This document shows positions 4,168-63,265 of a stretch of DNA of 64,000 nucleotides, piece by piece (within the stretch, counting starts at the first letter, position 1; each line of letters opens with the position of its first letter). A model generated the notes under the pieces. The model saw only the letters and a program-made list of their open reading frames with translations, was not told the origin of the DNA and made no database searches. The stretch is from assembly GCA_903908245.1 (NCBI GenBank), contig CAIVRE010000014.1, forward strand, positions 31,963-95,962, written 5' to 3'. A program made the translations under genes and the position numbers. The DNA comes from Candidatus Omnitrophota bacterium (GTDB lineage Bacteria > Omnitrophota > Gorgyraeia > Zapsychrales > Fredricksoniimonadaceae).

Positions 4168-4192
4168 CCGGCCACCGCAAACGGCCCGGCCC

Positions 4193-4696: not shown

Positions 4697-4721
4697 ATCC
4701 CCTCCTTGAAATAAAAAGATC

Positions 4722-5051
4722 CTACCATTTCTTGAAAATAAAGAACACTGCCGCGATGATAAACGCGAATCCCACCAGATAATTCCACTTGAAAGGTTCC
4801 TTTAGGTACCACACTGAAAACGCGCTGAATACCACCAAAGTAATAACTTCCTGGACGGTCTTAAGCTGTGCCGCGTTGAACTGCCCGTAGCCCCAGCGGT
4901 TGGCCGGGACCATCAGGCAATATTCAAAGAACGCGATCCCCCAACTGGCCAGAATGACCAGCCACAAAGGCTGGTCCCTGAACTTCAAATGCCCGTACCA
5001 GGCGAATGTCATAAAAATATTGGAAAAAGTCAGCAAAACGACCGTTATCAT
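4722..5051 (-). CDS. Small DMT-superfamily membrane protein (DUF486/COG3169-like)
   Basis: About 4 TM helices in 109 aa; conserved MVPANRWGY-type motif. Confidence 0.45.
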   Translation of the reverse strand: MITVVLLTFSNIFMTFAWYGHLKFRDQPLWLVILASWGIAFFEYCLMVPANRWGYGQFNAAQLKTVQEVITLVVFSAFSVWYLKEPFKWNYLVGFAFIIAAVFFIFKKW

Positions 5052-9216: not shown

Positions 9217-9227
9217 CCCGACATCCC

Positions 9228-23181: not shown

Positions 23182-24452
23182 GTCCCTATCAACCGGTAGA
23201 TCAGCAGATACGCACCGATACCGGCCAAATATCCGGCAAGGGCAGGGAAAGAAACCTTCTTCAAATACCAGAAAAAATTGATCTTCTCCATGCCCATCAC
23301 CACAACGCCCGCCGCGCTACCGATAATAAGGATGCTGCCGCCTGTCCCGACGCTGAAAGCCAGCAATTCCCAAAGCTTGCAATCCATCGGATAACGGATC
23401 ACATCATACATCCCCATGGTCGCCGCCGTCAGCGGCACATTGTCCACGATCGCCGACAAAAGCCCGAGCAGGGTGGCAATGATATCCTTGTTATTAAAAC
23501 AATGATCCATCCACATCGCCAGGTCTCGCAAAACACCGGCTGTCTCAAGGGCCGCCACCGCCAGCAGAATACCGAGGAAAAACAGGATACTGCTCATGTC
23601 GATCTTGTGCAGCGCCTGCGGTACTTTCAAATGCTCCCGCTCCTCGCCATGCGTCATATCTGTTACCAGCCACAGCAGCCCCAGGCCGAAAAGAATGCCG
23701 ACGAACGGCGGCAATCCTGTAAGGCCTTTAAAGACCGGGACGAATATCAATGCCCCAAGCCCGAGAATAAACACGCGCCTGGCTCCAATATGTTTTTCCT
23801 CCGCCGGACGCTCCACCGCCGCGACCTCCCCCTTCATCATAAAAGAGAACCAGGCCAACGGCACAAGCATCGAAACCATGCTGGGGATGAACAACATTTC
23901 CATGATTCGAAGCGAGCTCACCCGCCCGCCGATCCACAGCATGGTGGTCGTCACATCCCCGATAGGCGTCCAGGCCCCGCCGGCATTGGCCGCGATAATG
24001 ACCATGCTGCCAAAAAGCATACGGTCCTCCCTGTCATCAACCAGGCGATGAAGGAGCGAAACCATGACGATCGCCGTCGTCAGATTATCCAGGACCGAAG
24101 AAAGAAAAAAGGTAATAAAGGAAACCACCCACAAAAGGACCCGTTTGTCCTTCACCTTCAGCATCGATGTCACAACCTGAAACCCTCCGTGCGTTTCCAT
24201 CAGCTGGACAATGGTCATGGCCCCGACCAGGAAAAAAATGATCTGGGAGGTCCCTTCCATATGATGGCCCAGGCTTTCCACCATGCCATGAGCCGAGCCG
24301 CCCGGAATCGCCGCCTGCTGCAGGGCCAACAGGACCCAGCAAACAACCGCCGTCAGCAAAGCCACGGCGGTCTTGTTCACACCGAGTTTATTCTCAAAGG
24401 CTATCGCCGAATAGCCCAGGACAAACACGACCATGATCAGGTTCTCGAACAT
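23178..24452 (-). CDS. NhaD/ArsB-family Na+/H+ antiporter-like permease
   Basis: About 12 TM helices, NhaD-like conserved segments. Confidence 0.6.
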   Translation of the reverse strand: MFENLIMVVFVLGYSAIAFENKLGVNKTAVALLTAVVCWVLLALQQAAIPGGSAHGMVESLGHHMEGTSQIIFFLVGAMTIVQLMETHGGFQVVTSMLKVKDKRVLLWVVSFITFFLSSVLDNLTTAIVMVSLLHRLVDDREDRMLFGSMVIIAANAGGAWTPIGDVTTTMLWIGGRVSSLRIMEMLFIPSMVSMLVPLAWFSFMMKGEVAAVERPAEEKHIGARRVFILGLGALIFVPVFKGLTGLPPFVGILFGLGLLWLVTDMTHGEEREHLKVPQALHKIDMSSILFFLGILLAVAALETAGVLRDLAMWMDHCFNNKDIIATLLGLLSAIVDNVPLTAATMGMYDVIRYPMDCKLWELLAFSVGTGGSILIIGSAAGVVVMGMEKINFFWYLKKVSFPALAGYLAGIGAYLLIYRLIGT

Positions 24453-24510: not shown

Positions 24511-25083
24511 TCAATCTTTGGATCGCGCCGACTTGATCATATGATCGAACGCGCCCGCGAATTGCGCAAATGCCCCCGCAGCGTTCTGATAACGAAAGAA
24601 ATAAAAATTGCCCTTCACCCGCCCGATCAAAAGCTTCTCATGAGCAGCGACCAGAGGCACGTTGTGCGACATGCTCAGGATCGCCATATATGTCATATCC
24701 AGGACGACCGCGGGCTGCCCCAGCCAAAAGCCTTGCGCCCTCTTATCAAGTTTAAACCCGGAAAACTTTTCGCGCCTGGCAAGAATATCCGCCGCCGCTG
24801 CCTCAAGATCATCTTTAGTCCCAAGGTGCGCCGCATCCTTGACCGTTAACGAAATGACCGCCTCCTTTATCGCGTCCGGAGCAAGAAAAGAAACCTGGGC
24901 ATAACTGCTCCCGGCCCCGCGCGTCTCCCGAGCGGTCCATCCGGCAATCTTGTCCATCGTCACATTCAACAACGGGTCCTTGCTAACATATTTCTCATAT
25001 AAAAAAGGACTGCCGCAACCCCAAATTCCCGACATCAATATTACCGCCATAAGAAACCCTGCCAATTCTTTATGCCTTGTCAT
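24511..25083 (-). CDS. Lipoprotein of unknown function (start trimmed to MTRHKELAGFLMAVILMSGIWGC)
   Basis: Lipobox LMSGIWGC; ATG at 25083; the upstream 117 codons of the long ORF overlap the neighbouring gene. Confidence 0.4.
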   Translation of the reverse strand: MTRHKELAGFLMAVILMSGIWGCGSPFLYEKYVSKDPLLNVTMDKIAGWTARETRGAGSSYAQVSFLAPDAIKEAVISLTVKDAAHLGTKDDLEAAAADILARREKFSGFKLDKRAQGFWLGQPAVVLDMTYMAILSMSHNVPLVAAHEKLLIGRVKGNFYFFRYQNAAGAFAQFAGAFDHMIKSARSKD

Positions 25084-25099: not shown

Positions 25100-26398
25100 T
25101 CAATACTCCGGAAGGCCCTGTCCTTGATACGCCAGCCGAACGCCCTCCCTGAAGACCTCAGGGCCCTGCTGATACCACGAAAGCCATCCATCATTAAAGG
25201 CATCCGTTGTGTCACCCTTGACTTCCTCCCAAAGGAGCATCGCATTACACATCGCATTATACTCCTGATCGATCGAATTACCCGGAATAGAAATATCACT
25301 ATAAGTAAGCTCAGGATGACGCTGAAGGGTCTTCTCGATCCACACATCCGGATGGTTGTAATAATCCGCATGGGTCGCCTCATGGGCCAGGATCGCCGCC
25401 AAGGCCCCTGGAGGATTATCTTTAAAATCCTCATTCAATTCAATACTGCCATGTGGGGGAGACGGATAAAAATACCCGCCCGCCCCATCCATTGGCGCCC
25501 AATTCACAGGGACCCCCAGGGACTCGATCAACTTGTACGCATAGCCGGCACTCGGGGAATCCTTTAAAACCTCCATGACCGGTGCAAGCCCATCCGCGAT
25601 CAATGCTCCACTGCCTGCCGGAAGGTCCAGATAGGACCACCCGCCATAGATCGCGGAATCAACCGGAACAACCGGCTTGACCGCCGCGCCACCGCCACCA
25701 ATTATTCCGCCGCCTCCGGTCCCGCCGCCTGTCGTTCCACCCCCTGTCGTTCCGCCCCCGCTGGACCCTCCACCACCGGATCCACCTCCGGATCCGCCGC
25801 CGCTTGCGCCACCCCCGCCGGACCCGCCGCCGCTGGCCCCGCCCCCGCTGGAACCTCCGCCACCGGATCCGCCCCCGCTTGTCCCGCCGGAAGCAGCACC
25901 CCCCGTTCCACCGGAAGAACCTCCCCCGCCGGAATCCGCCTGATTCGGGATCAGAAACGGCTCATAACCGGTAGTAATGATCCCCTGATTATTGGCCGCC
26001 ACAACAATCGGCGCCTGCGGGACAGTCCCTTGCGCCGCGAAAGCCGAAAGGTCCGCATCGATCCTTTTGGCGATGACCGTATAATCATTGCTGGTTACAC
26101 CCACCACCGAATATTCATAATTCTTCGGCGTGATCCTGATATCCATCCCGGCATTGACCTCGGCCGCATTCTGGGCAGCGACATACTGCCCCGTCAGCTC
26201 CTTGGTCCTTTCCTCTGCCCGGCGGATCGCCCCGACATTCACATACGCTTCCGCAACCTCGGCCTTCTTGATCTGCTTGCTAAAACAAACCAATGCCAAC
26301 GCGGCCAATAACGCCACAATAACGAAAGCAATAATGATCTCAACGATCGTGAACGCGGCTTTCCGGAATTTCATCGATCCCGACAGATAACGACTCAT
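25100..26398 (-). CDS. Pilin-like N-terminus + ~90-aa Gly/Ser linker + C-terminal HExxH (zincin-like) domain protein
   Basis: Prepilin-type N-terminus KAAFTIVEIIIAFVIVALLAALAL (Glu at +5); GGGS-type low-complexity tract (DNA 25684-25960); HEATH motif near 25380. Confidence 0.6.
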   Translation of the reverse strand: MSRYLSGSMKFRKAAFTIVEIIIAFVIVALLAALALVCFSKQIKKAEVAEAYVNVGAIRRAEERTKELTGQYVAAQNAAEVNAGMDIRITPKNYEYSVVGVTSNDYTVIAKRIDADLSAFAAQGTVPQAPIVVAANNQGIITTGYEPFLIPNQADSGGGGSSGGTGGAASGGTSGGGSGGGGSSGGGASGGGSGGGGASGGGSGGGSGGGGSSGGGTTGGGTTGGGTGGGGIIGGGGAAVKPVVPVDSAIYGGWSYLDLPAGSGALIADGLAPVMEVLKDSPSAGYAYKLIESLGVPVNWAPMDGAGGYFYPSPPHGSIELNEDFKDNPPGALAAILAHEATHADYYNHPDVWIEKTLQRHPELTYSDISIPGNSIDQEYNAMCNAMLLWEEVKGDTTDAFNDGWLSWYQQGPEVFREGVRLAYQGQGLPEY

Positions 26399-26478: not shown

Positions 26479-26512
26479 AAAACCCCCTGCAAGTTTCCCT
26501 GCAGGGGGTTTA
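26479..26512 (-). terminator. Rho-independent terminator of cspA
   Basis: ccccctgca/tgcaggggg stem followed by U6AU3 on the minus-strand RNA. Confidence 0.5.
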
Positions 26513-50165: not shown

Positions 50166-50585
50166 TTAAAAAGAAATATCCCCGGCATCCGAGATCGCGG
50201 CTGGCTGGCTTTGCCCGGGAAGACCGGCGGAAAAAACCACATAATACCTTCTGTTGCTTGAAACAAGATACTTGTACTCGCTGGTCGCTGTCGCGCCGAA
50301 AGGATCGTACAAAGGCGCTTTGATCAGTTGCGGGGTCGCAGGGATCAGGGCAGACGCACAGATGGTATCCGTCCCCGCAGGAAAAGACCTTTGGTGAATA
50401 TAATACGCCTCCAGCGCAGCCTGCAAGGCTTTGACCTCACTCTGGGCCCGGGTGACCCTGCCCTGGTCCTGCATGCCCTTGATACGAGGCACAGCGATCC
50501 CGATCAAGATCCCCAGCACGGCAAGAACAACAAGGAGTTCCAGAAGGGTAAAACCTTTAGGCCTGCTGACCGGCTCTGACGCCAT
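50166..50585 (-). CDS. GspG/PulG-like major pseudopilin (paralog of 57836-58291)
   Basis: Prepilin N-terminus KGFTLLELLVVLAVLGILIGIAVP plus GspG-type motif RIKGMQDQ. Confidence 0.8.
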   Translation of the reverse strand: MASEPVSRPKGFTLLELLVVLAVLGILIGIAVPRIKGMQDQGRVTRAQSEVKALQAALEAYYIHQRSFPAGTDTICASALIPATPQLIKAPLYDPFGATATSEYKYLVSSNRRYYVVFSAGLPGQSQPAAISDAGDISF

Positions 50586-50599
50586 AAAACACCCCCCTC

Positions 50600-50926
50600 T
50601 TATTTCACCTGGGCCGGTGTCTGCATCGCGGCCTTATGCGCTAGGGCACGCTCTTTCGCCAACTTCATCTGCTCTTCGATCCTGGCCGCAACTTCCGGAT
50701 TAGCCTTGAGAAAAGCATCCCGTTCGGCATTCAACTGTTCGTTGAGCGCCTTGCGCGCCTCGGCCTGTTTTTTCATCAAGGCAGACCATTCCGCCTGCCC
50801 GGCAAATTGATCCGGCCGAACAATTGCCTGCGCGGCAGCGGGCTCCGTCGATGCAGCCGGCTGGGCAAAAGACATTGCAGGAAGAACCATTAACGCCGCG
50901 ACCACTCCCAGGAATACTTTCTTCAT
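50600..50926 (-). CDS. Small secreted helical protein (Spy-like?)
   Basis: Signal peptide; Ala/Lys/Glu-rich helical 108-aa protein. Confidence 0.4.
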   Translation of the reverse strand: MKKVFLGVVAALMVLPAMSFAQPAASTEPAAAQAIVRPDQFAGQAEWSALMKKQAEARKALNEQLNAERDAFLKANPEVAARIEEQMKLAKERALAHKAAMQTPAQVK

Positions 50927-51146
50927 AACCTTCTCCTTTGTTATTTATAATGATAACCAAACCCGGTCCCTGCCTGGCCCCCCGTTCGGGGAGGACAGTC
51001 GATCATCAGCTGCACGTCCCCGTTGCGGTATTGCACGACTGTCCGGCCGTACAACAATTGATCGGCTCACCGTACGCCCAGCCAAGGTTCTTCGCGCAAG
51101 CCGTCGTGCCATTGGGGCAACAATATCCCGGAGCCCAGTACCAGCC

Positions 51147-52889
51147 CTAGCTGTTGTGATTATTCGCGCAGAATGTCCCTGCTCCGCAACATGTCATCGG
51201 ATTGGAATAACCGCAGCATTCATCCCCGATATTACATACTGTCGCGTCATGGCCCCCTCCGCTTACACAGGCAAATTGGCTGCTGCTGACACAGGCGACC
51301 CTTCCGACAACGGACGAACTGCATGTTTGGTCCATATCGCAACAAACCTGGTCCCCGCTGCCACCCCACCCGTTCACTGCCGCGTAATTCTTGCACGAAT
51401 ATTGCGTAGCCGAACAACCGCTATCCCCGGCTTGCGTACAATAACTGCCGCCGCCCTGATTTGCGATCTCCATTTGCCCCGCAGGGCACTGGCAGACGCT
51501 ATCAATGCAAGTCTTGCTGCCTGTGCACACATTCCCGCACCAGCCGCAATTGTTATTATCAGCGCTCATATCCTCTAGACAACTGCCACCGGAACAGCAG
51601 CCTAAAGGACATACATTCCCGAGACTGCCGCAATTGTTGGGATCCGAATTTAAATCCACACAACTGCTCCCGATACAACTCGAAGGACACCAATTGCCGC
51701 AACCGCCGCAGTTGTTCGTATCCGTTGCAAGGTCACTGCACCCGCCCCAACAGCACGAAGGGTTTTCTCCGCTGCACACGTTCCCGACACTGCCGCAATT
51801 GTTGACATCCCAATCCAGGTCATAACAGCCGCTACCGACACAATAAGGACACCAGTTCCCGCAGCCGCCGCAATTATTCGTATCCGTCGCAAGGTCCGTA
51901 CAACCACCCCAGCAACACGCGGGATTATCCCCATAACACACATTACCGGGGCTGCCGCAATTATTGACATCCCAGTTCATATCCGGCGTACAAACACCCG
52001 CAGTACAATAAGGAAGGTCCCAAGGGCACACATTGCCACAGCTGCCGCAATTATTTGTATCCGCATTGGTATCCACACAAAACCCGGAACAGATCGTCAG
52101 CCCGCCCGGGCAGCTGGTGCCGCAACTCCCCGTTGAAGTATCGCAAGCCTCCTCGGACGTACAGCAATTGACCGGCTCCATATATGCCCACCCGCCCCAA
52201 TACGCGCAAGTCGTCGTGCCGGTAGGGCAGCAATATCCCGGGGCATAAAGCCAGCCGAAAGGATTATTATTATTCGCGCAAAACGTTCCCGGGCCGCAGC
52301 AGGTCAGCGGATTGGAATAACCGCAGCATTCTTCCCCGTTATTGCACACGGTCGCGTCATGCCCCCCCCCGCTTATACAAGCGAATTGATTATTGCTGAC
52401 ACATCCAACCCTTCCAACAACAGAAGCACTGCAGGTTTGATCGGTCTCGCAACATGTCTGGTCAGTGCTCCCGCCCCACCCATGAATAGCATAATAATTC
52501 TTGCACGCATATTGCGTCGATGAACAACCCGTATCACCCGGTTGCGCACAATAACTGCCGCCGCCCTGGTTCCAGATCTGCATCTGCCCCGCGGCACAGG
52601 TCCCCTGGTTATAAGGAAGAACAACCGTACACGCTCCGCTGGAACAGGCTTTTCCAACACCGCAAACAGTCCCGCAACCACCGCAATTATTGACATCGGA
52701 AGAAATATTGACGCAACTGCTGCCGCAACAAACAGTACCGCCCGAACAGACCCCGCAAGCCGGATTTATCCCGCTCTGATACGGGCTATTGGTTGCCAGA
52801 GGAACAGGCTTTATGGCCAGGGCCGTGTTGCCTGCCGCAACCAAAGAAAACCCGAGGACAATTAGAAGAAACAGCCTGATCGTTTTCAT
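51147..52889 (-). CDS. Secreted cysteine-rich Stig1-repeat protein (paralog B, modules in a different order)
   Basis: N-terminal 90 aa about 75% identical to paralog A; Stig1-type repeats in the C-terminal half; a CCGxGTFCANN module occurs twice. Confidence 0.7.
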   Translation of the reverse strand: MKTIRLFLLIVLGFSLVAAGNTALAIKPVPLATNSPYQSGINPACGVCSGGTVCCGSSCVNISSDVNNCGGCGTVCGVGKACSSGACTVVLPYNQGTCAAGQMQIWNQGGGSYCAQPGDTGCSSTQYACKNYYAIHGWGGSTDQTCCETDQTCSASVVGRVGCVSNNQFACISGGGHDATVCNNGEECCGYSNPLTCCGPGTFCANNNNPFGWLYAPGYCCPTGTTTCAYWGGWAYMEPVNCCTSEEACDTSTGSCGTSCPGGLTICSGFCVDTNADTNNCGSCGNVCPWDLPYCTAGVCTPDMNWDVNNCGSPGNVCYGDNPACCWGGCTDLATDTNNCGGCGNWCPYCVGSGCYDLDWDVNNCGSVGNVCSGENPSCCWGGCSDLATDTNNCGGCGNWCPSSCIGSSCVDLNSDPNNCGSLGNVCPLGCCSGGSCLEDMSADNNNCGWCGNVCTGSKTCIDSVCQCPAGQMEIANQGGGSYCTQAGDSGCSATQYSCKNYAAVNGWGGSGDQVCCDMDQTCSSSVVGRVACVSSSQFACVSGGGHDATVCNIGDECCGYSNPMTCCGAGTFCANNHNS

Positions 52890-52999
52890 ATCACCAGCAA
52901 ATTAATATTAGAAGAAAACTCCGCAGATTAATGAACAATCCGCTTTAAAGCCTCAGAAAAAGATTACTCCCAAAAAGAGGATTCAAGAAATATTTTCTT

Positions 53000-53575
53000 T
53001 TATGGCATGCCCGGCAAAAGCTGCTGCTGATCCGGCTGGGCGGACTGCATTTCCTGCGGAAGGTCCTGCGGCGGTGTCTTCTGGAGTTCCGGCTGAGGTT
53101 CCGGCTGGGATTCCTGCTGTAAAAGAGTCAGGACCATCTCTCTCCCTCCCCCGGCAATGATCACCGAATCCTCCCGGATGGCCTTGACCGCCATCCCGCC
53201 TCCCACATCGGCCCCGACACCAACCACGATATCATTGATAATAGCACTGGGTAAAGCACCGCTGGATATAATGCCCGTCAGGATATAACGCTTCATTGAA
53301 ACCGGTGCCTTAACGGCCATTACCGGAGGGGTCACCGGCTTGACCATCGTTTTGAACGCGCGTGAATCAAACGGGTCCCTTTCGCCCCAATCCACCGAAA
53401 TATAGCCGTCATCACTGCTCTTGTCGGCGTTGATCAGGTCCATCAGCTCTTTCTGATCCGACAGGACCGCTGCCGAAGAAACGGCCGGATCAGCTTGCGC
53501 GGTCCTGATCCCGACCGGCACAAGCGCCACAACCGCCCAGCAGCACATAAGAATGATTTTTTTATTTCTGTCCAT
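53000..53575 (-). CDS. PilP-like pilus assembly lipoprotein
   Basis: Signal peptide; C-terminal beta-domain pattern YILTGIISSG..P.AII..VVGVGADVGGGMAVKAIREDSVII like PilP. Confidence 0.55.
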   Translation of the reverse strand: MDRNKKIILMCCWAVVALVPVGIRTAQADPAVSSAAVLSDQKELMDLINADKSSDDGYISVDWGERDPFDSRAFKTMVKPVTPPVMAVKAPVSMKRYILTGIISSGALPSAIINDIVVGVGADVGGGMAVKAIREDSVIIAGGGREMVLTLLQQESQPEPQPELQKTPPQDLPQEMQSAQPDQQQLLPGMP

Positions 53576-54089
53576 TGTCTTTTGCCACCCACAACACGAA
53601 CGTCATCTTCGCTGTCACCTGTTCCAGGCTGGTGCCCTGCGGCCGCACCCGCAGGCTTTCAACCGCAATGATCCCCTCGGGCATATTCCTGACCGCCGTC
53701 AGAAAAAGTCCGAGATCCTTGAAAGAAGACACGGTTTCAACCCCCATGGGCATCCGTCGATAGATCTCTTTCTTTTCCTTCTCAACCCCGTACGGCCTCA
53801 AAGTGACGATCCCCACCCTGTTTTCCTTGGCCAGCCTGGCAAGGACGTCCTTGGCCAAAGGAAGGCTTTCTTTGGTGAACAACCGCTGACGCGCATCGCC
53901 AGCACTCCTGGCCGAAAGAAGGCTGCGCAAAAAAAGATTCTTCTGGGCATACCCATTCTGCTGCTCATAAAACTCTTTATTCGCCTCAATAACAGGAGAA
54001 CATAAAAAGAATGCCAAAAAACCCAGGAACAGAATAACGGCGAACGAGGAAATATAAAAAACGATCTTTTCATCTATTTTAAAGTTCAT
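53562..54089 (-). CDS. PilO-like inner-membrane pilus assembly protein
   Basis: Single N-terminal TM plus ~140-aa periplasmic domain; sits between PilMN and PilP; overlapping stops/starts. Confidence 0.55.
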   Translation of the reverse strand: MNFKIDEKIVFYISSFAVILFLGFLAFFLCSPVIEANKEFYEQQNGYAQKNLFLRSLLSARSAGDARQRLFTKESLPLAKDVLARLAKENRVGIVTLRPYGVEKEKKEIYRRMPMGVETVSSFKDLGLFLTAVRNMPEGIIAVESLRVRPQGTSLEQVTAKMTFVLWVAKDNGQK

Positions 54090-55813
54090 TTTTTTGCTTC
54101 CCCCTGCCCCATACGCCCCTCGATCTGAAACTGCGTAACATTGGCCGTCCTTGGCATCTTTTGAGACGGCAAAAGGCGGGCCGAACTCACAATATCCTTG
54201 TTAAGGTCCAGCACGAGCTGAGCCGGCGCTTCCTGCGCTTCCCGCCCGTCACCAACCACCATCCCCGACAAAGTCACCCTGTCGCCATCGAGATTGATCT
54301 CGGTCAAACAAACATTCCTGGGAAGATAACTTAACTGTTTGAACAGAACACTCATGTCCGGACGGGTGCGCGCCAGCATTTTCACCTTAAGCTCGCCTTT
54401 GAACCTCTCGACCTGCGGCAAAAGGCCTTCGTATTCGCCTCTGGAAAACGCCAACCGCGCGCGGTTCGCATCCCTTTCCGCCGACAGGCCATGATACGCA
54501 CCACCCAGGACCAGAATGACGGCCGCCGCCGACAGGCCGGCAACGATCTTCCTGACAAAGATCTTTTTCCGTTCTTTAAGATGGCTCGGCAAAAGGTTGA
54601 TCCCGTGCGGATCCCCGAGCGAAGCCCCGATCGCCAGGACCAGCCGATGGGCCTCTTCCTCATTACGCACAACACCATCATAAAGAAGTTCAATGTCCTT
54701 GAGCGGATTACCCAAATGGACCGGCAGATTCAGCTCGGCGTTCAGATATCCCGGTAAACCTTTAAGCCTGGCCCCGCCGCCGAACACGATAAGCCGGTCA
54801 ACCGTACCGACACGCATCTTGTCGCGGTAGAAATCGAAGGAACGCGAGATCTCGCCCACGAACTGTTCAAGCCTTGGGCGCAGCAACGCCAGGATCTGCG
54901 GAGCCGAGATCTTGCCGTTAATGATAAAATCATCGTCCGGTGAAGGCAGCCCGTGATCCCTTTTGATCTGCTCGGCCTCTTCGAGCGTAAGCTCGATCTT
55001 TCCTGCGTTGGTGAACATCGCGCGGGTCAGGCTGCGGGTCAGGTCCGACCCCGTCACCGTGATCTGACGCGAGAACTCCAGCCTGGAATTCCGATAGAAA
55101 TTCAATTCCGTGCCGATGGTCCCCATTTCAAGGACCGCGATCGTTTCCTCCATCCGGAGCTTGGACTTCTTGATGATATTCTCCATGGCCAATGCCAGCG
55201 GGATAATGGCGCTCACATTAAGCCCCAGCGGCGACTCGTCGGCCATGCCCGCTTCGCCACCGGACAACGGCTTTTCCCGCTGGGAAATAAAATGCGACAA
55301 AAGATCATCCACGGACGACTTGGCGGCCGCCGCCACCATCACATTCATTTTCTCCACACCCTTGTCCATGACACGGCCCAGGACTTTGAAATCCACCACC
55401 GGATTCTTGATGGCGAAATGCTGGGAATTGAGGACCTCCAGCCTGATCGCGTCCACCAGGTCCCCCGGCGGCATGACAGGCAGGACCATATTCTCGACCA
55501 TGGCCTGCCGGCCGAAAAGGACACAAACGATCTCCGCCCGGCGGGTATTAAAGTCCGCCAATACCGACTTAAGGGCCGCGATGGCCGCGGCCGCGCGCTG
55601 GTTCTCGTCGGAAATATCAATGCTTCGGACCGCCGTCTTGATCAGTGTGGGTTTCCCCCGGTAAATGGCTGTCTGCGCCACGCTCACCGAAGCATAACTG
55701 ATATCGATGCCGATGACCGACCGGCCGGCGCACAAAGCTTTCTGAAGCCTGAGCTGCTGCGGATCGGCCATTGCTGTGTCCTTGAGCGCCTCGGCTCCGC
55801 CGCCTTCAACCAT
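54086..55813 (-). CDS. PilM-PilN fusion protein (actin-like ATPase-fold PilM fused to TM/periplasmic PilN)
   Basis: PilM-like N-terminal 380 aa (GIDISYASV...), then PilN hallmark INLLPSHLKERKK followed by a TM helix. Confidence 0.75.
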   Translation of the reverse strand: MVEGGGAEALKDTAMADPQQLRLQKALCAGRSVIGIDISYASVSVAQTAIYRGKPTLIKTAVRSIDISDENQRAAAAIAALKSVLADFNTRRAEIVCVLFGRQAMVENMVLPVMPPGDLVDAIRLEVLNSQHFAIKNPVVDFKVLGRVMDKGVEKMNVMVAAAAKSSVDDLLSHFISQREKPLSGGEAGMADESPLGLNVSAIIPLALAMENIIKKSKLRMEETIAVLEMGTIGTELNFYRNSRLEFSRQITVTGSDLTRSLTRAMFTNAGKIELTLEEAEQIKRDHGLPSPDDDFIINGKISAPQILALLRPRLEQFVGEISRSFDFYRDKMRVGTVDRLIVFGGGARLKGLPGYLNAELNLPVHLGNPLKDIELLYDGVVRNEEEAHRLVLAIGASLGDPHGINLLPSHLKERKKIFVRKIVAGLSAAAVILVLGGAYHGLSAERDANRARLAFSRGEYEGLLPQVERFKGELKVKMLARTRPDMSVLFKQLSYLPRNVCLTEINLDGDRVTLSGMVVGDGREAQEAPAQLVLDLNKDIVSSARLLPSQKMPRTANVTQFQIEGRMGQGEAKK

Positions 55814-55825
55814 AAACAGGATCCT

Positions 55826-56944
55826 TCATTTCTCACCCCAGCTGTTGGGGACCGGCGTAAAGCCGGATCCCGCCGTATCGCCTGCGTAGATCTGCGCGAT
55901 CTCGATCGAAGACAAAGCCCTGTTGTAAAGACGGACATCGTCCATTGTCCCGGAAAAATACAAATTATTATCCCGCATATTCGAACCTATGACCAGAGCG
56001 TAATTCCCGTTGTAACTGACATCCTTGGCGGCCGTTGATGTCCCATCCGCAAGGCCATCCAGATAATATTTCCCGCCCGTGCCTCCGCTTTTCACAAAAC
56101 ACACATGATGCCATGCCCCGTCATTCACGCCGGTATTGCTTCCCGCGCCGGCCGGAAACCCATAGCCGCTGTCCCAGTCCCAGAAAACCATCTTGTGATT
56201 GGAGTAAACCTCCCAAACACACTCTCCGGCTATACTGGCGGCTGTACGCCCCAAAGACAGGATAAAACACTCCCCGGCGCAAGCGGTCTTGATCCATGCA
56301 CAAACCGTCAGATTCGAACGGGGAGGATTATTAAATGTCGTCCTTGTCAAATAAGAGCTGCTCCCGTTAAAACTTAACGCCCCGACGCCGACCTTCCCCG
56401 CTGTCCAGGCCGGATCATTAACATACGTCCCCGTATTCCCCCTGCCGCTGGAATCCGCCGCCGTTATGGGCATCGTTCCGGAAGCTGCGTCATCGAACTT
56501 CCACCAGCCTACGGGGCCCATTCTCACGCGCTGGTATACGACCCGGGTCATTTGATTGACGGTCGACCGACCGGTGATATAGATCGAGCTGTCGGGAGCG
56601 TAATCCTCCACCCACATCGTATAACTGCCGCTGGTCAAATTTTCACTCCGTGGATCTGTTGGCCCCGCGCCGGCCGCCGCCGGATAAGCCGTCGTCCGCC
56701 ACGTCCCGTAAATACTCGCATCCGGCGCCGTGTTGAGCAGATACCACATCGCCTTGTTCACCCCCGCCTCCGCCAGATAGAACGCCTGGCTGCTGTTCAG
56801 CTGCCGGGCGGCGTTAAGCTGGGAATAGATCACCGTATTAATAAAGACCACCACAAAGACCACCAGCGCGAACATGAACATCATGGTCATCAAAAGAATA
56901 CTGCCGCGCCGGCCGCTGATCTTAAATATCGTCGATATTGTCAT
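55826..56944 (-). CDS. Minor pilin/pilus tip candidate: PilX_N-type N-terminal TM segment plus C-terminal LamG/concanavalin-like domain (start trimmed to MTISTIF)
   Basis: GRRGSILLMTMMFMFALVVFVVVF hydrophobic segment; C-terminal LamG_3 signature (...SGTMDDVRLYNRALSSIEIAQIY). Confidence 0.55.
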   Translation of the reverse strand: MTISTIFKISGRRGSILLMTMMFMFALVVFVVVFINTVIYSQLNAARQLNSSQAFYLAEAGVNKAMWYLLNTAPDASIYGTWRTTAYPAAAGAGPTDPRSENLTSGSYTMWVEDYAPDSSIYITGRSTVNQMTRVVYQRVRMGPVGWWKFDDAASGTMPITAADSSGRGNTGTYVNDPAWTAGKVGVGALSFNGSSSYLTRTTFNNPPRSNLTVCAWIKTACAGECFILSLGRTAASIAGECVWEVYSNHKMVFWDWDSGYGFPAGAGSNTGVNDGAWHHVCFVKSGGTGGKYYLDGLADGTSTAAKDVSYNGNYALVIGSNMRDNNLYFSGTMDDVRLYNRALSSIEIAQIYAGDTAGSGFTPVPNSWGEK

Positions 56945-56957
56945 TGGAAAAGAGCTG

Positions 56958-57434
56958 TCACAGGTTCCTTGGCCTGACCTTGCTGCGCACATGCACAACA
57001 GACCCCGCATTATCGGCGGAAAGGTCGATCGTGATCACGTTCCCGCTTTGACTGAACACCGTCGTGGCCGAAGGCTGTATCCTCGCTGCAATGGTGCCCC
57101 CGGTATCCGCAGGGTCCGCTGCCAGCCCTTTCAACAAACGATAAGAAATCGTGTTAAGAACAAAACGGTATTCTTTCGCCCCTGCCCCATCGCCCAGGTC
57201 GGCCTTGAACGTCACTTTTTGCCCGCTTAAAGATGTGATCTCGGTAGCCCGGCGAAGCTGCTTGACCATCAATTCCATGGCCTGGGACAGCTCCATCCTC
57301 GTGGAAGCACGGCGGTCCCCGGCGTCCCAAGAGCTCAGGCAAGCCAGGTAAACGAACACAACCGTCCCTGCGAGGATCGCCATGACAGCCGAAGAAATAA
57401 GAAGTTCAACGAGCGTAAAAGCCGTCTTGTTCAT
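56958..57434 (-). CDS. Pseudopilin (prepilin-type N-terminal cleavage/methylation domain)
   Basis: MNKTAFTLVELLISSAVMAILAG N-terminus. Confidence 0.7.
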   Translation of the reverse strand: MNKTAFTLVELLISSAVMAILAGTVVFVYLACLSSWDAGDRRASTRMELSQAMELMVKQLRRATEITSLSGQKVTFKADLGDGAGAKEYRFVLNTISYRLLKGLAADPADTGGTIAARIQPSATTVFSQSGNVITIDLSADNAGSVVHVRSKVRPRNL

Positions 57435-57442
57435 CCTGATCC

Positions 57443-57823
57443 CTAAAGCGTCCGGTTGGCCAGCAATGTTTCCAGGCTCACTTGCTGGTCAACGCCTTTG
57501 AATTTCCAGTAGATGATGACCTTCACTTGTTTCGGGTCGCCGGAAACGGTGATCTGGCGATCGTACAGGGCAAACGGCGCGCCAATATTCACCCGCGCCA
57601 CTGCCGCAACAGAGCCCCAACCCGTATCTTTAAGTACCTCCATCTGCTCCTGCGCCAGCGCGGACGCAACAACCATGCCTTCCACGCTCTGATCAGTGCC
57701 CAGCGCCTGGGACATCGCCCCAACCGCCGAAAAAACACCCACCGCCAGCACAATACCGGCCAACATCAATTCCAGCAATGTGAACCCGCCGTTGCGGGCA
57801 CGGCCCTTACACCTCATGATCAA
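57443..57823 (-). CDS. PilV/GspI-like pseudopilin
   Basis: GGFTLLELMLAGIVLAVGVFS prepilin N-terminus; 126 aa. Confidence 0.65.
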   Translation of the reverse strand: MIMRCKGRARNGGFTLLELMLAGIVLAVGVFSAVGAMSQALGTDQSVEGMVVASALAQEQMEVLKDTGWGSVAAVARVNIGAPFALYDRQITVSGDPKQVKVIIYWKFKGVDQQVSLETLLANRTL

Positions 57824-57835
57824 CTCCCGCTAACA

Positions 57836-58291
57836 TCAGATACAGCCGGCAACAGTTCCGTTCGTAACACAAATGCCGCCGTTAAGATTACCCGTGACCG
57901 CGGCACCGCCATCAGTAAGCGCGCTGATCGTTGGCGCAGTACCAGGCCCGACGGATATAATGATATAATAAAGCCCGTCCGTAGACTTAAGATACTTGTA
58001 CTCGGTCCCGGTGGCGGCGAACGGATCATAGAGCGGAGCAGCCACGATCTTGGGATTCAAGGCATTGAGCGTGCTGGCACAGATCGTATTACTGCTCGCC
58101 GGATAAGCATTGCTGTTGTTGATATAATACGACACGATCGCGGTCTGAAGCGTCTTGAGCTCGGACTTGGCTTTCTGGATATTGGCCTGGTCCTGCATGC
58201 CTTTGATACGCGGAACAGCGATGCCGATCAGGATCGCGAGGACCGCGAGCACAACGAGAATTTCGAGGATCGTAAAACCTTTTTTATTCAT
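57836..58291 (-). CDS. GspG/PulG-like major pseudopilin
   Basis: KKGFTILEILVVLAVLAILIGIAVPRIKGMQDQ; about 65% identical to the 50166-50585 product over the N-terminal half. Confidence 0.8.
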   Translation of the reverse strand: MNKKGFTILEILVVLAVLAILIGIAVPRIKGMQDQANIQKAKSELKTLQTAIVSYYINNSNAYPASSNTICASTLNALNPKIVAAPLYDPFAATGTEYKYLKSTDGLYYIIISVGPGTAPTISALTDGGAAVTGNLNGGICVTNGTVAGCI

Positions 58292-58322
58292 ACTGTTTCT
58301 CCTTTTTGTTTTTTACCGTCTT

Positions 58323-59552
58323 TTATCGTTGAATTGTTTTAACAAGGTCGAACATCGGCAGAATGACCGACGCCAACATTGTTCCTACGCATATCCCCAA
58401 GAAAGAAATGAACACCGGCTCAATGAACACGATCGACTGCTTGATCGCGAACTCCACTTTCAACTCGTAAAAATCCGCGACTTTATTGAGCATTTCTCCT
58501 ATTCTACCACTTTTCTCCCCTACAGAGATCATATATACCACGTCTCTGGAAAATTCCTGATGCCCTTCAAGCGCCGTATAGATCCCTTCGCCCTTCTCGG
58601 CACTGGCGCGCACCTCGCGCACGATCCCGGCGAAGACCATATTCCCGATCACATCCTCGACGATATCCAGGGCCCTCAGGAGAGGCACTCCGGAGTTCAG
58701 CATGGAACCAAAGGTCCGGCTGAAACGCGCCACGAACATATTGCACATCAGAGGACCGACGATCGGAAGCTTCAAAAGGACACGATGCCAAAGCTTCTTG
58801 CCGAACTCGGTCCCCAGGAATTGCCGGACACCCAGGACGAGCGCCCCCAGGATCAAAAAGAACAACACCCAATAATGCTGAAGCCATATCCCCAGGCTGC
58901 ACATCAATTGAGTGGCCAGAGGCAGCTCCACCCCGGCCTTGCTGAAGATCTCCGCGAACTTCGGGATAACGAACGTCAGGATCAACAGGATGACACCCGT
59001 GCCGACAGTCATCAATATCACCGGATACGTAAGCGCGCCAACGACCTTCTGCCTCAGGTCTTCCTGCTTTTCCATATGCACCGCCAGCGTCTTTAACACC
59101 TGGCCCATGGTCCCGGAAGATTCCCCGACGCGCACCATGTTGATGAAGAACGGGGAAAAGACCCGGGGATGCCCCTCCAGCGCGTCCGACAAAGACGACC
59201 CTTCCGAAACCTGCAGGGCGATCTTCTGCACCACACTCCCGAAATAAAGATTCCCCAGTTGCCCGGCAATACTGTTAAGCGCCCCCAGCAGCGGGATACC
59301 CGCGCCGACCATGTTGGAAAGGTTGACGCAAAAAAGCATCAGCTCCGCGATCGTCACGCGCGTGACCCGAACGACAGCGGGCGCCACAGGAACAGTGACC
59401 GCACTGTGCACAAGCGCGACCTCGCCGACCTTGACCGGCGTATAGTCCCTCCGGTGCAGCTGCCTGATCGCATCCTGCTCGTTCTCGGCTTCCACCTCGC
59501 CCGTAACCAGGCCACCGGCATTATTCCTGGCTTTATAAGAAAACACGATCAT
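58323..59552 (-). CDS. GspF/PilC-family inner-membrane platform protein
   Basis: Two T2SSF repeats, 3 TM helices, 409 aa. Confidence 0.85.
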   Translation of the reverse strand: MIVFSYKARNNAGGLVTGEVEAENEQDAIRQLHRRDYTPVKVGEVALVHSAVTVPVAPAVVRVTRVTIAELMLFCVNLSNMVGAGIPLLGALNSIAGQLGNLYFGSVVQKIALQVSEGSSLSDALEGHPRVFSPFFINMVRVGESSGTMGQVLKTLAVHMEKQEDLRQKVVGALTYPVILMTVGTGVILLILTFVIPKFAEIFSKAGVELPLATQLMCSLGIWLQHYWVLFFLILGALVLGVRQFLGTEFGKKLWHRVLLKLPIVGPLMCNMFVARFSRTFGSMLNSGVPLLRALDIVEDVIGNMVFAGIVREVRASAEKGEGIYTALEGHQEFSRDVVYMISVGEKSGRIGEMLNKVADFYELKVEFAIKQSIVFIEPVFISFLGICVGTMLASVILPMFDLVKTIQR

Positions 59553-59571
59553 TCAAGACCCCTCGCCCTTT

Positions 59572-61191
59572 TTATTCCTGCTGGATCACCCGGTAGACCT
59601 CTTCTTTCTTCGTCAGGCCTTCCTCGGCCTTCTCCATGCCGTTATCACGCAGGCTCTGCATCCCGGCCGAAAGGGCCGCACGGTTGATCTCGTCGGCAGA
59701 TGCCTTGCGCAGGATCAGCTTGCGGATCTCTTCATCAAAAACCATCAGCTCATAGATCCCGGTACGCCCCTTATACCCCGTCATGGAACAATTCTTGCAA
59801 CCCTGGCCGGCGCAATCCCGGCAGTTGAGGCGCACCAGGCGCTGCGCCATAACACCAATGATCGAAGACACCAGAAGGAACGACTCAACGCCGATATCCA
59901 GAAGGCGGGTCACCGCCCCGGCCGCATTGTTGGTATGAAGCGTCGCGAGGACCAAATGGCCCGTCAGGGACGCCTGGATGGCGATCTGCGCGGTCTCCAC
60001 ATCACGGATCTCGCCGATCATGATCACGTCGGGATCCTGCCGGAGGATCGCGCGCAGGCCCCGGGAGAACGTCAGGTCGACCGCCGGATCCACCTGTGTC
60101 TGGCGAATACCCGGCAAACGGTATTCCACGGGGTCTTCAATGGTCACGATCGATTTCTCGGGCGAGTTGATCGTGCTCACCGAGGAATACAGCGTGGTCG
60201 TCTTGCCGCTGCCCGTCGGCCCGGTGACCAGGATGATCCCGCTGGTGCGGGTCAAAAGGGCCTTGAACTTGGTCAGGTTCTCCTTGTGCAGGCCGATCTG
60301 CTCCAGGCCCAGCAGAATGGCACTGGTGTCCAAAAGCCGCAAGACCGCGTTCTCTCCGTAAACTGTCGGCAAAAATGAAATACGGATATCCACGCGCCGG
60401 CTGTCAAGCTGCATCTGAATGCGCCCGTCCTGCGGCTTGCGGCGTTCGGCGATATCCAGGCTCGCCAGGATCTTGAGGCGCGAAATGATCGCCGCGCGGA
60501 ATTGCTTGGGAGGCAATGCCTGCGGATACAATATCCCGTCGATCCGGAAACGGATATTCAGGGAAAGCTCCTCCGGCTCGATATGGATATCCGACGCCCC
60601 GTCGTTAACAGCCTTGATGATCATCGTGTTAACGAATTTAACCAGCGGAGACTCCTCCACCGACCCCTGCAGCCGGTGGACCTCGACCTCGTCGCCTTCT
60701 CTTACCTCGCGCTTCTGGTCGTCAAGGGTCTTGATCGCTTCCTGGATCCCGCTGGGCATCGCATAAAACTCCCCCAGGGCCTTCTTAACCTCGTCTTCCG
60801 TGGCAATAGCCGGATCGATCACAAGCCCTGTCCGGACCGTCAATTCATCGATCGCATAAAGATCAAAAACATCGACCATGGCGCAGGTCAGGCTGCCGCC
60901 GATCTTGAAGACCGGGATCACCTGGTACTTGCGCGCCATCTCCTCGGGGACCAGGCGGATCACCTCGGGATCGATCTCAAGGTTCCCGATCTCGATGCGG
61001 GGGATATCCGTCTGCTCGGAAATAAAATCGGCAAGCTTGTCCTGCGTGATCAGGCCCAGCCGCGGCAGGACCTTGATCGCGGGGTCCCCGCTGCTCTTTT
61101 GCTCGATCTGGACGCTTTCCCACTGATGCTGGGAAATAAGGCCCTTCTCGAACGCCAGCTCCCCGACGGCTTTCTTGGAATATTTAGCCAT
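59572..61191 (-). CDS. GspE/PilB-family assembly ATPase
   Basis: N-terminal GspE_N/MshEN-like domain; Walker A GPTGSGKTTT; Asp/His boxes; tetracysteine CRDC...CKNC motif. Confidence 0.85.
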   Translation of the reverse strand: MAKYSKKAVGELAFEKGLISQHQWESVQIEQKSSGDPAIKVLPRLGLITQDKLADFISEQTDIPRIEIGNLEIDPEVIRLVPEEMARKYQVIPVFKIGGSLTCAMVDVFDLYAIDELTVRTGLVIDPAIATEDEVKKALGEFYAMPSGIQEAIKTLDDQKREVREGDEVEVHRLQGSVEESPLVKFVNTMIIKAVNDGASDIHIEPEELSLNIRFRIDGILYPQALPPKQFRAAIISRLKILASLDIAERRKPQDGRIQMQLDSRRVDIRISFLPTVYGENAVLRLLDTSAILLGLEQIGLHKENLTKFKALLTRTSGIILVTGPTGSGKTTTLYSSVSTINSPEKSIVTIEDPVEYRLPGIRQTQVDPAVDLTFSRGLRAILRQDPDVIMIGEIRDVETAQIAIQASLTGHLVLATLHTNNAAGAVTRLLDIGVESFLLVSSIIGVMAQRLVRLNCRDCAGQGCKNCSMTGYKGRTGIYELMVFDEEIRKLILRKASADEINRAALSAGMQSLRDNGMEKAEEGLTKKEEVYRVIQQE

Positions 61192-61207
61192 AGTCTGCTC
61201 TCGACGG

Positions 61208-61609
61208 TCACACGCGAACGATCAATTCCTCGACCTTGCGCATCAATTCCGGGATATTGATCGGTTTGTTGATAAAAGCATCCACCTTCACCTGGGCACT
61301 GAGCCTCTCATCTGCCGCGTCGGCACTGGCCGTGACCATGATCACGGGGATCCCGCGAAACCGCCTGTCCGCCTTGATCAGGGCGCACGTCTTCAGGCCA
61401 TCCATCTTGGGCATCATCCGGTCGAGGATGATCAGGTCCGGAAGGCTTTGCTTCACCGCCGCCAGCGCCTCCTGGCCGTTATAACACTTGGCCACCTCAA
61501 AACCGGCCGCATGAAGGCTGGCTTCCAGGAACCTCACGATCCCCGGATCGTCATCAACCACAAGGATCCTTTTCTTGGCTGTCTCTTCTGTCACGGTCAT
61601 TCCCCTCAA
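61208..61609 (-). CDS. Single-domain CheY-like response regulator embedded in the pilus cluster
   Basis: Receiver residues (VVDDD, ...D..MP.MDG, ...T...K); no output domain. Confidence 0.7.
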   Translation of the reverse strand: MRGMTVTEETAKKRILVVDDDPGIVRFLEASLHAAGFEVAKCYNGQEALAAVKQSLPDLIILDRMMPKMDGLKTCALIKADRRFRGIPVIMVTASADAADERLSAQVKVDAFINKPINIPELMRKVEELIVRV

Positions 61610-61621
61610 GCTTTCTGTTGT

Positions 61622-63265
61622 TCACGGGCCTTTGGCGGCCGCGTCCTTGCTCTTGCGGCCAACCACTTCCTGGCACGCGTTCACGAACATTTCCGTCGTA
61701 TCAATATAAGAGCTGTTCGGAAAATTCTCCCTCATCTTCGCAAGCGCCTCACCCGCCGCTTCGCACTTATGGAACCCTTTCACATAAAGGGCGGCCACTT
61801 TGTACAGACAAAAATCGCTTTTCCCCGAATTAGGGAAATGCTGCAGGATCGTTTTATACGTTTTGATCAGCTCGGAATACAGGTAAAGGTCATCCGCCGG
61901 TTTTTTAGAAACATCTTTTTCCAGGCTCGCCGCATATGTCAACAATCCCGAAAGCAGGTCCATGTCCGGTTCCAGGGACTTGGATTCCACATAAACCCCC
62001 GGCTGGGCCCCGGGCTTATCGAACACCATCGGCTGGGTCGAACGGATGATATGGGGCGTAATAAAGACGGTCAGCTCGGACGTCTGGTCTGTGTCCGCTC
62101 GCCGCTGAAAGAACCATCCCAGGACAGGGACATTCCTGATGCCTGGCACTCCGTTCCTCGAACGGTCCTCGTTCTTGCTGATAAGCCCGCCGATAATGAT
62201 CGTCTCGTTATCCTTGACCCGGACCGTGGCGTCCGCTTCGCGGGTGCCGATCAACGGCGCCCCGTCGGAACTGTAACCGGTCACGGTCGATACCTCCGGG
62301 TGGATCTTCATCGTTATCCACCCGTCGGGAGAGACCATGGGGGTCACCCTCAGGGACGTCCCGACCTCGACATACGAAGTCCCCGATGTATTGGTGATCC
62401 CGCCCGACGACCCAGAAATGCTCGTTTGCGTCGACTTGTACGGGACGCGGTCGCCGATGATGATCTTCGCTTCCTGGCCGGTGAGGGTCGCAATGGATGG
62501 CGATGCCAGCACGCGCGCTTTGTCGCTCTGCACCAGGGCGTCGATCGTCACATTCGCCGCAAGGTATTTCAGGTTCGGCGTTAACAGCAGCTGGCCGCCG
62601 TCCGTATCTTTCGCCGAGGAGCCCGTGTTGAACTCCGCGGACTGAAGGCTTCCGTGCGGAGGAGTGACCTTGCTGGTAATGGAGGTCCCGATCTTTTCCA
62701 CCTCCGCGGTCTTGATATCGACGATCCTTGCCTCAATAAGGACCTGCATCGGCGGAAGGTCGATCTCCTTGAGGAGGGCCTTGATCTCCCCGATGTTCTG
62801 CGGATAATCCCTGACGACCAGGCTGTTGGTCGCAATGATGGTCTGGATATCCCCCTTGCTCGAGATCGCCTTGCCTAAAAGTTCTTTGGCATCCTTGACG
62901 GCCAGATAACTCAACGGCAGCGATTCGGTCGCCAGTTCCGCTTCCGATTTGGACATGATATAAACGATCTTGTCCTTGCGATAGAACGCGTAACCATTAA
63001 CGTCGAGGAAGGCCGTCAACGCCTCATCGATGGAAATATTCTTGAGCTTGGCGGAGACTTTCCCCGAAACGCTCTTGGAAATGACGATATTGAAATCGTA
63101 GGAATACGCCAGGGCTTTGAGCACGGACGACAGGTTGGCATTGTTGTAATCCAGGCTGACAAGCTGCGGAGGCCCGGCAAGGACAGAACCACCGTCGGCC
63201 GAAAAGGGCATCTGCCATGGGCCGGCAAAAAAGATCATCAGGGAAATGAGGACGCGTTTTAACAA
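61622..63265 (-). CDS. Secretin (GspD/PilQ family)
   Basis: Signal peptide, N0/N1-like domains, C-terminal secretin domain with VPGIRNVPVLGWFF motif. Confidence 0.8.
   Translation of the reverse strand: MLKRVLISLMIFFAGPWQMPFSADGGSVLAGPPQLVSLDYNNANLSSVLKALAYSYDFNIVISKSVSGKVSAKLKNISIDEALTAFLDVNGYAFYRKDKIVYIMSKSEAELATESLPLSYLAVKDAKELLGKAISSKGDIQTIIATNSLVVRDYPQNIGEIKALLKEIDLPPMQVLIEARIVDIKTAEVEKIGTSITSKVTPPHGSLQSAEFNTGSSAKDTDGGQLLLTPNLKYLAANVTIDALVQSDKARVLASPSIATLTGQEAKIIIGDRVPYKSTQTSISGSSGGITNTSGTSYVEVGTSLRVTPMVSPDGWITMKIHPEVSTVTGYSSDGAPLIGTREADATVRVKDNETIIIGGLISKNEDRSRNGVPGIRNVPVLGWFFQRRADTDQTSELTVFITPHIIRSTQPMVFDKPGAQPGVYVESKSLEPDMDLLSGLLTYAASLEKDVSKKPADDLYLYSELIKTYKTILQHFPNSGKSDFCLYKVAALYVKGFHKCEAAGEALAKMRENFPNSSYIDTTEMFVNACQEVVGRKSKDAAAKGP

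Follow-up and report, generated by a model that had tools for sequence, protein, structure and literature searches.

Is a pilin that carries an enzyme-like domain a working filament subunit, and if so, what does it display and what keeps it in check? This question is raised by a gene in a 64,000-nucleotide (nt) stretch of a Candidatus Omnitrophota contig (CAIVRE010000014.1; the window, here, means this whole 64-kb stretch). Its product, which we call the HExxH pilin, joins a prepilin-type N-terminus through a Gly-rich tether to a C-terminal HExxH domain, and the gene is followed directly by one encoding a lipoprotein. We consider it probable that this protein is a type IV pilin of the modular kind on which a metallopeptidase-like enzyme is displayed, and that the lipoprotein is a cognate partner binding or inhibiting the enzyme. 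Our confidence is high in the architecture of the HExxH pilin and in its family assignment, moderate in its predicted peptidase activity and display on a filament, and low in the exact role of the partner lipoprotein.

The gene occupies positions 25100..26398 on the minus strand, as do all window features given below unless marked otherwise, and is present as the initial annotation described it, an open reading frame (ORF) of 432 amino acids (aa) plus stop. An ENA contig identical to the window (L005) has the same 432-aa gene called. The exact 432-aa sequence was absent from the sequence collection, which may explain the few matches in the first homology search. Four parts can be distinguished in the protein: a class III (prepilin) leader, a type IVa (T4a) pilin head, a Gly/Ser/Thr tether and a 195-aa C-terminal domain. 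An intrinsic-terminator-like hairpin with a 14-bp stem followed by a T-run (26480..26511) lies 3' of the upstream csp (cold-shock) gene and is the 5' boundary of the two-gene unit.

The first 15 residues (MSRYLSGSMKFRKAA; 26354..26398) read as a class III leader peptide. The N-terminus as a whole, MSRYLSGSMKFRKAA/FTIVEIIIAFVIVALLAALALVCF with the slash marking the cleavage site, carries basic residues ahead of the cut and has Ala at -1, Phe at +1 and Glu at +5 (E20); the leader ends KFRKAA/F, and about 24 hydrophobic residues (F16-F39) follow the cut. M9 is a possible alternative start, which would give a 7-aa leader. Residues 16-155 (25934..26353) form the predicted pilin module, in which a hydrophobic alpha1-N helix (aa 16-39) precedes a small globular head. 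When the N-terminal 155 aa were compared with PDB sequences using phmmer, type IV pilins were the only matches, the best being PilA (6xxd, E = 1.5e-5). This alignment spans residues 16-113, including strands of the head, and aligns F16 with Phe1 of the solved mature chains; cleavage is therefore predicted at A15/F16. Sub-threshold matches of the N-terminal part were to the Pfam family ComP_DUS (E = 7e-4) and the NCBIfam family GspG (E = 4e-4).

The same features recur across the family. The N_methyl profile (PF07963) matches 43 of 123 homologues at E <= 0.01, with a best E of 1.9e-8, and at least 73 of the 122 cluster representatives that are full-length show the class III motif. An acidic residue at +5 is retained in nearly all T4a-like members. 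Established pilin genetics has shown that this residue matters for pilin assembly and not for anchoring, and its near-universal presence therefore supports filament competence. The prepilin-type signal with Glu at +5 proposed in the initial annotation was borne out by the pilin homology and the N_methyl matches, and the data support the prediction that the N-terminal part is a full pilin module, beyond a mere signal. An ordinary Sec signal or plain transmembrane anchor was rejected in view of the pilin-head homology together with the family-wide class III motif.

The pilin module is joined to the C-terminal domain by a Gly/Ser/Thr tether of 82 aa (aa 156-237; 25688..25933) with 66% Gly (G54 S15 T7 A4 I2), encoded by imperfect 15/30-nt tandem repeats. 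A Gly/Ser linker of about 90 residues had been annotated here; the tract is present, at the shorter length of 82 aa. Homologues mostly keep such a linker, since Gly-rich linkers of at least 30 aa occur in 48/52 T4a-like and 12/16 Flp-like members, with a median length of 66-74 aa in these two classes, but in only one of six TadE-like members. Tether variants were also seen: P0053 has Stig1-type Cys-rich repeats between the pilin module and the HExxH domain, and an Fn3-like segment is found in the protein encoded at L003:3666-5090. Antisense to the Gly tract runs an 88-aa poly-Pro ORF (25677..25943, plus strand), which merely mirrors the (GGN)n coding repeats and is an artefact, not a gene.

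The C-terminal domain (aa 238-432; 25103..25687), a divergent relative of DUF6782, is present as annotated, although its size is 195 aa and not 190. It carries the motif HEATH (H339-E340-x-x-H343; 25370..25384), whose two His are candidate metal ligands and whose Glu would be catalytic. Of 123 aligned homologues, all 123 conserve H339, 120 E340 and 122 H343. The initial annotation had proposed looking for a third metal ligand, and a candidate of the gluzincin type is E379 in the motif SIDQEYNA on a downstream helix (25262..25264), conserved in 121 of the 123 homologues; W390 is conserved in 116. Conservation extends to the extreme C-terminus, LPEY (25103..25114; L in 97, P in 85, E or D in 85, Y or F in 100), where the last block of the domain model has a predicted local distance difference test (pLDDT) score of 97. 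C-terminal tails reach the active site in minigluzincin zymogens.

AlphaFold2 modelling of the domain on a 31-sequence alignment gave a pLDDT of 92.6 and a predicted template modelling (pTM) score of 0.88. The model has two helices, three strands, a long helix bearing HEATH and four more helices, the second of which starts at E379; in the numbering of the model, HEATH lies in predicted helix 93-111 and E379 opens predicted helix 139-156. The predicted fold is zincin-like, and the only proteins that the model resembles are of the zincin fold. In the structural check against zincin folds, a Foldseek search of the PDB, the top four matches were zincins, with myoglobin noise at lower ranks; there was no match at E <= 0.001. 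Near-invariance of the motif together with the fold rules out a chance HExxH, and the annotation of a candidate zincin site was upheld. On conservation and the model, the domain is predicted to be of the gluzincin type (HExxH...E), without a close solved relative. The DUF6782 profile, named "putative metallopeptidase", matches 19 of the 123 family members at E <= 0.01, and two distant homologues score above its threshold (P0122, 32.9 bits; P0028, 32.8 bits). SprT-like, M48 and Tox-MPTase4 profiles gave scattered weak matches in the family, that of Tox-MPTase4 in two members. As in DUF6782 and minimal gluzincins (proabylysin, projannalysin and M48-type cores), the active-site helix of the domain bears HExxH, a later helix bears a Glu, and a small three-stranded sheet comes ahead of the active-site helix.

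The size of the family became apparent as the searches widened. The initial homology search returned three partial Omnitrophota proteins, a subsequent profile search 30, and a profile run exhaustively against 1.84 billion cluster representatives 193 at E <= 1e-3, with 94 at E <= 1e-10. The family comprises about 190 clusters, defined at 50% identity and almost all from metagenome-assembled genomes of Omnitrophota, and most matches are 360-450 aa long with the domain at the C-terminus. A tblastn search of plasmids found nothing. The 122 representatives of at least 200 aa include 51 T4a-like, 16 Flp-like and 6 TadE-like proteins, classes that were defined by the patterns [G/A/S]F[T/S]L[L/I]E (T4a/pseudopilin), G-x4-EY (Flp) and [G/A]QSTLE (TadE), with a few further class III-like starts outside these patterns. 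In one 759-aa member, P0140, two copies of the HExxH-family domain come after a lipase-like alpha/beta-hydrolase domain, and the motif of the first copy is degenerate (HQGEH); this multi-enzyme architecture resembles that of secreted toxins.

The TadE-like HExxH proteins are encoded inside Tad-type loci (L004, L007). L004 (865-9918) contains twelve tandem Flp-like pilin genes, many of whose products have Ala at -1; next in order are a TadE-like gene of 469 aa, the TadE-like HExxH gene, its partner and a gene for an 834-aa protein that had no Pfam match. The order in L007 is TadE-like HExxH gene, partner, 829-aa gene, Flp-like gene and a gene of the T2SSF family (TadB/C-like). A single genome may hold more than one class, as in L003, where two divergent HExxH-partner pairs are found (3666-5695 and 7845-9581), one T4a-like and one Flp-like. 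The T4a-like protein has an Fn3-like insert, the motif HEGTH and a partner without the lipobox Cys, and the Flp-like protein is paired with a lipoprotein. Fusion of the same domain to T4a-like, Flp-like and TadE-like pilins, and the placement in Tad loci, support use in a filament over use of the pilin part as a plain anchor.

The second gene of the unit (24511..25083) encodes a 190-aa lipoprotein with a signal ending IWG/C, weakly similar to PsbP/LpqN. The initial annotation called it translationally close, and it begins 16 nt past the stop of the HExxH gene, with AAGGGGA ahead of its start. Its N-terminus, MTRHKELAGFLMAVILMSGIWG/C, has a lipobox, and in 22 aligned partners Gly at -1 is invariant and the Cys is present in 20. 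A partner homologue lies directly downstream of the HExxH gene in L001 (36% identity, E = 5e-40), in both L003 pairs and in L004, L006 and L007. We also scanned one genome per species with four query sequences, using HExxH-domain patterns only, which gave 16 loci, 14 of them titled Candidatus Omnitrophota. A hidden Markov model of the partner matched directly downstream and on the same strand in all 16 (E from 1e-36 to 1e-88). In total, 19/19 independent pairs have the partner homologue directly downstream, with gaps of -35 to +30 nt, and pairwise divergence of the HExxH protein is correlated with that of the partner (Mantel r 0.61; 0 of 5000 permutations as high). As judged from gene order and divergence, the downstream lipoprotein is predicted to be an obligate, co-diverging partner within the loci examined. 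Two distant homologues on the fringe of the family, P0029 (lipoprotein-type) and P0030 (Sec-type), lack a partner, so that the pairing does not extend to every outlying member. The window partner itself had no Pfam match, profile searches of the partner against the PDB returned nothing meaningful, and PADLOC gave no match to the gene pair.

A variant of the pair without secretion signals bears on how the two proteins are related. P0028 is a signal-less, non-pilin DUF6782 protein whose gene overlaps by 4 nt that of a signal-less partner homologue (E = 3e-17). Since this pair has neither signals nor a pilin part, the enzyme-partner pair is probably older than the pilin fusion. It is signal-less on both sides, so that the compartment of the partner seems to track that of the enzyme, which argues for direct interaction of the two. 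At the P0028 locus (L024 1-2787; also L025 and L026), a HerA/DUF87-type ATPase and a 59-aa ORF lie upstream of the pair, and loci of this type may represent a conflict or defence-type system that acts in the cytoplasm and makes use of the same enzyme-partner pair.

Candidate assembly machinery is present in the window. A cluster resembling a type II secretion system (T2SS) or type IV pilus (T4P) system was identified at 50166..63265 from Pfam matches and pilin N-termini. It comprises a secretin (61622-63265), GspE (59572-61191), GspF (58323-59552), GspG-like pilins (57836-58291 and 50166-50585), minor pseudopilins resembling GspI/J (57443-57823 and 56958-57434, the latter with Ala at -1), PilM (54086-55813), a PilO-like gene (53562-54089) and a weakly T2SSC-like gene (53000-53575). 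It also includes a 394-aa GspK-like protein (55826-57010) with the hydrophobic N-terminus RRGSILLMTMMF and a LamG/concanavalin-like domain, which is itself modular pseudopilin-like. The T2SS/T4P-like machine looks complete, and its presence in the window counts in favour of filament use; the cluster, 25 kb away, may serve the HExxH module.

These components suggest how the protein may work. The class III signal would insert the HExxH pilin into the inner membrane, where a prepilin peptidase would cut at A15/F16 to leave the alpha1-N helix and a small T4a-type pilin head. On the periplasmic side, the 82-residue tether would join this head to the gluzincin-like domain of about 21 kDa. A type IV filament machine could then take up the pilin module as a subunit of low abundance. 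Its probable place is the tip, since the secretin would be hard to pass for an appendage of 21 kDa on the shaft, and the enzyme would leave through the secretin, to be displayed or delivered outside the cell. The candidate machines are a type IVa pilus (T4aP) or the T2SS-like system 25 kb away and, for the Flp-like and TadE-like paralogues elsewhere, a Tad pilus. The translationally coupled PsbP-like lipoprotein would bind the catalytic domain and most likely keep it inactive, or protect the producer, in the periplasm; alternatively, it may act as an adaptor. The most likely chemistry would be metal-dependent hydrolysis of a peptide bond in an external target, for example an envelope protein or peptidoglycan peptide of prey or host.

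Several results count against this interpretation of an enzyme-displaying pilin. The N_methyl score of the HExxH pilin, 20.0 bits, is below the threshold of 21.2, as is its TIGR02532 score (10.8 against 16.3). Alanine at -1 is suboptimal for classical prepilin peptidases. As far as sequence comparison can tell, it is no refutation of a prepilin signal, because the -1 residue is A in 16 T4a-like members (G in 29, S in 6) and in a minor pseudopilin of the T2SS-like operon of the window itself (KTA/FTLVE, 56958-57434); several Flp-like pilins of the related Tad locus L004 have KA/Q at the cut. No prepilin peptidase gene was found among Pfam matches in the 64-kb window, and no pilus genes were found within +/-6 kb of T4a-like modules, either that of the window or those of other genomes. 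Passage of a 21-kDa domain through a secretin is not obviously possible if the domain sits on a shaft subunit. On the side of the enzyme, the HExxH pilin scores 12.7 bits (E = 0.078) with DUF6782 against a gathering threshold of 27 bits, and is, by these profile scores, a related, divergent branch of DUF6782 and not a member by the curated criterion. For the partner, all Pfam matches were sub-threshold, though they concur in a single structural group (PsbP in 11/22, PsbP_2 in 6 with a best E of 1.7e-6, LpqN in 3 and DcrB in 1), an AlphaFold2 model from two sequences had a pLDDT of 35, and the mirror-tree correlation could also stem from simple co-inheritance.

Some of these points favour other explanations. 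The lack of pilus genes beside the gene pair, in the window and in other T4a-like loci, fits a membrane-tethered periplasmic protease that is never polymerised, with the pilin part as inner-membrane anchor, the Gly tether giving the zincin domain a reach across the periplasm, and the lipoprotein as an adaptor presenting substrates. NlpI-Prc, a pair of lipoprotein adaptor and protease, is an analogue for such an arrangement, the partner here is likewise a lipoprotein in the same compartment as the enzyme, and its retention with signal-less, non-pilin homologues suggests that the enzyme-partner pair works without a filament. However, a plain transmembrane anchor needs no complete pilin head, no acidic residue at +5 and no convergent fusion to T4a, Flp and TadE pilins, and Tad pilus operons enclose the TadE-like versions. 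We therefore regard a tethered protease as unlikely, while taking it seriously as the main alternative.

The remaining explanations concern the enzyme and the route it takes. The single best structural match of the C-terminal domain is a non-peptidase HExxH oxygenase domain, a caveat to its reading as a peptidase. The domain could be another metal enzyme, for instance an Fe/alpha-ketoglutarate-dependent HExxH oxygenase like ChlH, or a non-peptide hydrolase, or a non-catalytic binding module. The combination of a fold match with a biosynthetic context, or one of ribosomally synthesised and post-translationally modified peptides, expected of a ChlH-like oxygenase was not seen here, and we think it improbable that the domain is not a peptidase. 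We give still less credence to the protein being a T2SS substrate or pseudopilus cargo, in which the pilin module would target a T2SS-like machine and cutting of the tether would free a soluble zincin exoenzyme. No precedent for this was found in the literature searched, the linker has no conserved cleavage site, and the Flp-fused and TadE-fused versions point to Tad pili and not to a T2SS, even though the window has a T2SS-like cluster with GspG/I/J/K-like pseudopilins and a long unstructured tether is an obvious place to cut.

As a modular pilin that displays an enzyme, the protein has clear relatives in kind. An InterPro survey of modular pilins counted over 1,200 proteins and 264 architectures, predicted peptidase modules (S74, M26) among them; in Streptococcus sanguinis, PilB bears a vWA module and PilC a lectin module (Raynaud et al. 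2021, PMC8179133). The HExxH pilin falls within the definition used by Raynaud et al., and like modular type IV pilins it has a class III signal and small pilin module to which an unrelated functional module is grafted C-terminally. It differs from the S. sanguinis type in its 82-aa Gly-rich tether in place of a short linker, and from known modular pilins in its DUF6782-related zincin-like module, its spread over three pilin classes and its dedicated lipoprotein gene. Because predicted peptidase modules were already in that survey, a pilin plus an enzyme module is no new category. Modular pilins are thus established, whereas the HExxH module and its partner appear to be undescribed: in the literature searched, neither the HExxH family nor its long Gly tether, its occurrence on T4a, Flp and TadE pilins or its obligate partner was described, and a full-text search found no paper on DUF6782, for which the pair provides a first genomic context and partner. 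Archaeal solute-binding proteins offer a further likeness, as non-structural proteins with a prepilin-type signal that are localised to the surface via homologues of pilus-assembly proteins; they differ in having no enzyme module and no partner lipoprotein, and the HExxH pilin retains a full bacterial pilin head.

Type IV filaments adhere, pull, take up DNA and secrete. To our knowledge, enzymes built into pilus subunits have so far only been predicted from domain surveys. One zincin-like domain on three pilin scaffolds, with a partner, is a testable system for pili as devices of enzyme display or delivery, and the HExxH-partner pair one for self-protection against an enzyme parked in the producer's own periplasm.

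A more specific proposal is that HExxH pilins are filament-delivered weapons: Omnitrophota, as proposed ultra-small predators or parasites, would carry the zincin effector on T4a, Flp or TadE subunits, an extending pilus pressing it onto or into a host envelope, with the lipoprotein as periplasmic immunity protein or inhibitor in a type IV filament-based effector-immunity system. We put this forward tentatively and consider it rather doubtful. In periplasmic effector-immunity and polymorphic toxin systems, a C-terminal enzyme domain is carried on varied delivery modules and a small cognate gene lies directly downstream. The likeness to these lies in the downstream cognate gene (19/19), a partner compartment that matches that of the enzyme, correlated divergence and the weak Tox-MPTase4 matches; the difference is that the HExxH C-terminal domain is constant and not polymorphic. 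As far as we have checked, the PsbP/LpqN-like fold is not a recognised immunity family. Omnitrophota are reported to be rich in T4aP and Tad systems and have been proposed to be predators or parasites (PMC10066038), and in Myxococcus xanthus the Tad-like Kil apparatus is required for contact-dependent killing of prey by a lytic factor that is unknown (PMC8460266). As in the Kil case, where a type IV filament system is tied to predation, TadE-like HExxH proteins are found in Tad loci; unlike here, no pilin-fused enzyme has been described there. These reports make the effector-immunity reading attractive as a hypothesis. The family is concentrated in Omnitrophota, whose genomes hint at predation or parasitism mainly through their T4aP and Tad systems, and is a candidate effector for this proposed way of life, which currently has none. 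If the weapon reading is true, HExxH pilins would also be candidates for the missing lytic factor in contact killing of the Tad/Kil type.

Other genes of the window were also inspected. A 995-aa ORF (30599-33586) had no Pfam match at E <= 1e-5. Directly downstream of the gene pair (22108-24452) are an NhaD-type antiporter and an L-Ala-D/L-Glu epimerase-like gene of the enolase superfamily, and 11 kb from the pair lies an NlpC/P60+SH3b peptidoglycan peptidase (12573-13913); in the other genomes examined, the pair did not have these neighbours. Two genes (48366-50153 and 51147-52889) interleaved with those of the pilus cluster encode secreted, very Cys-rich proteins of about 580-595 aa with Stig1-type repeats. 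Such repeats are common to P0053 and to these proteins of the pilus cluster in the window, which hints at a shared functional context.

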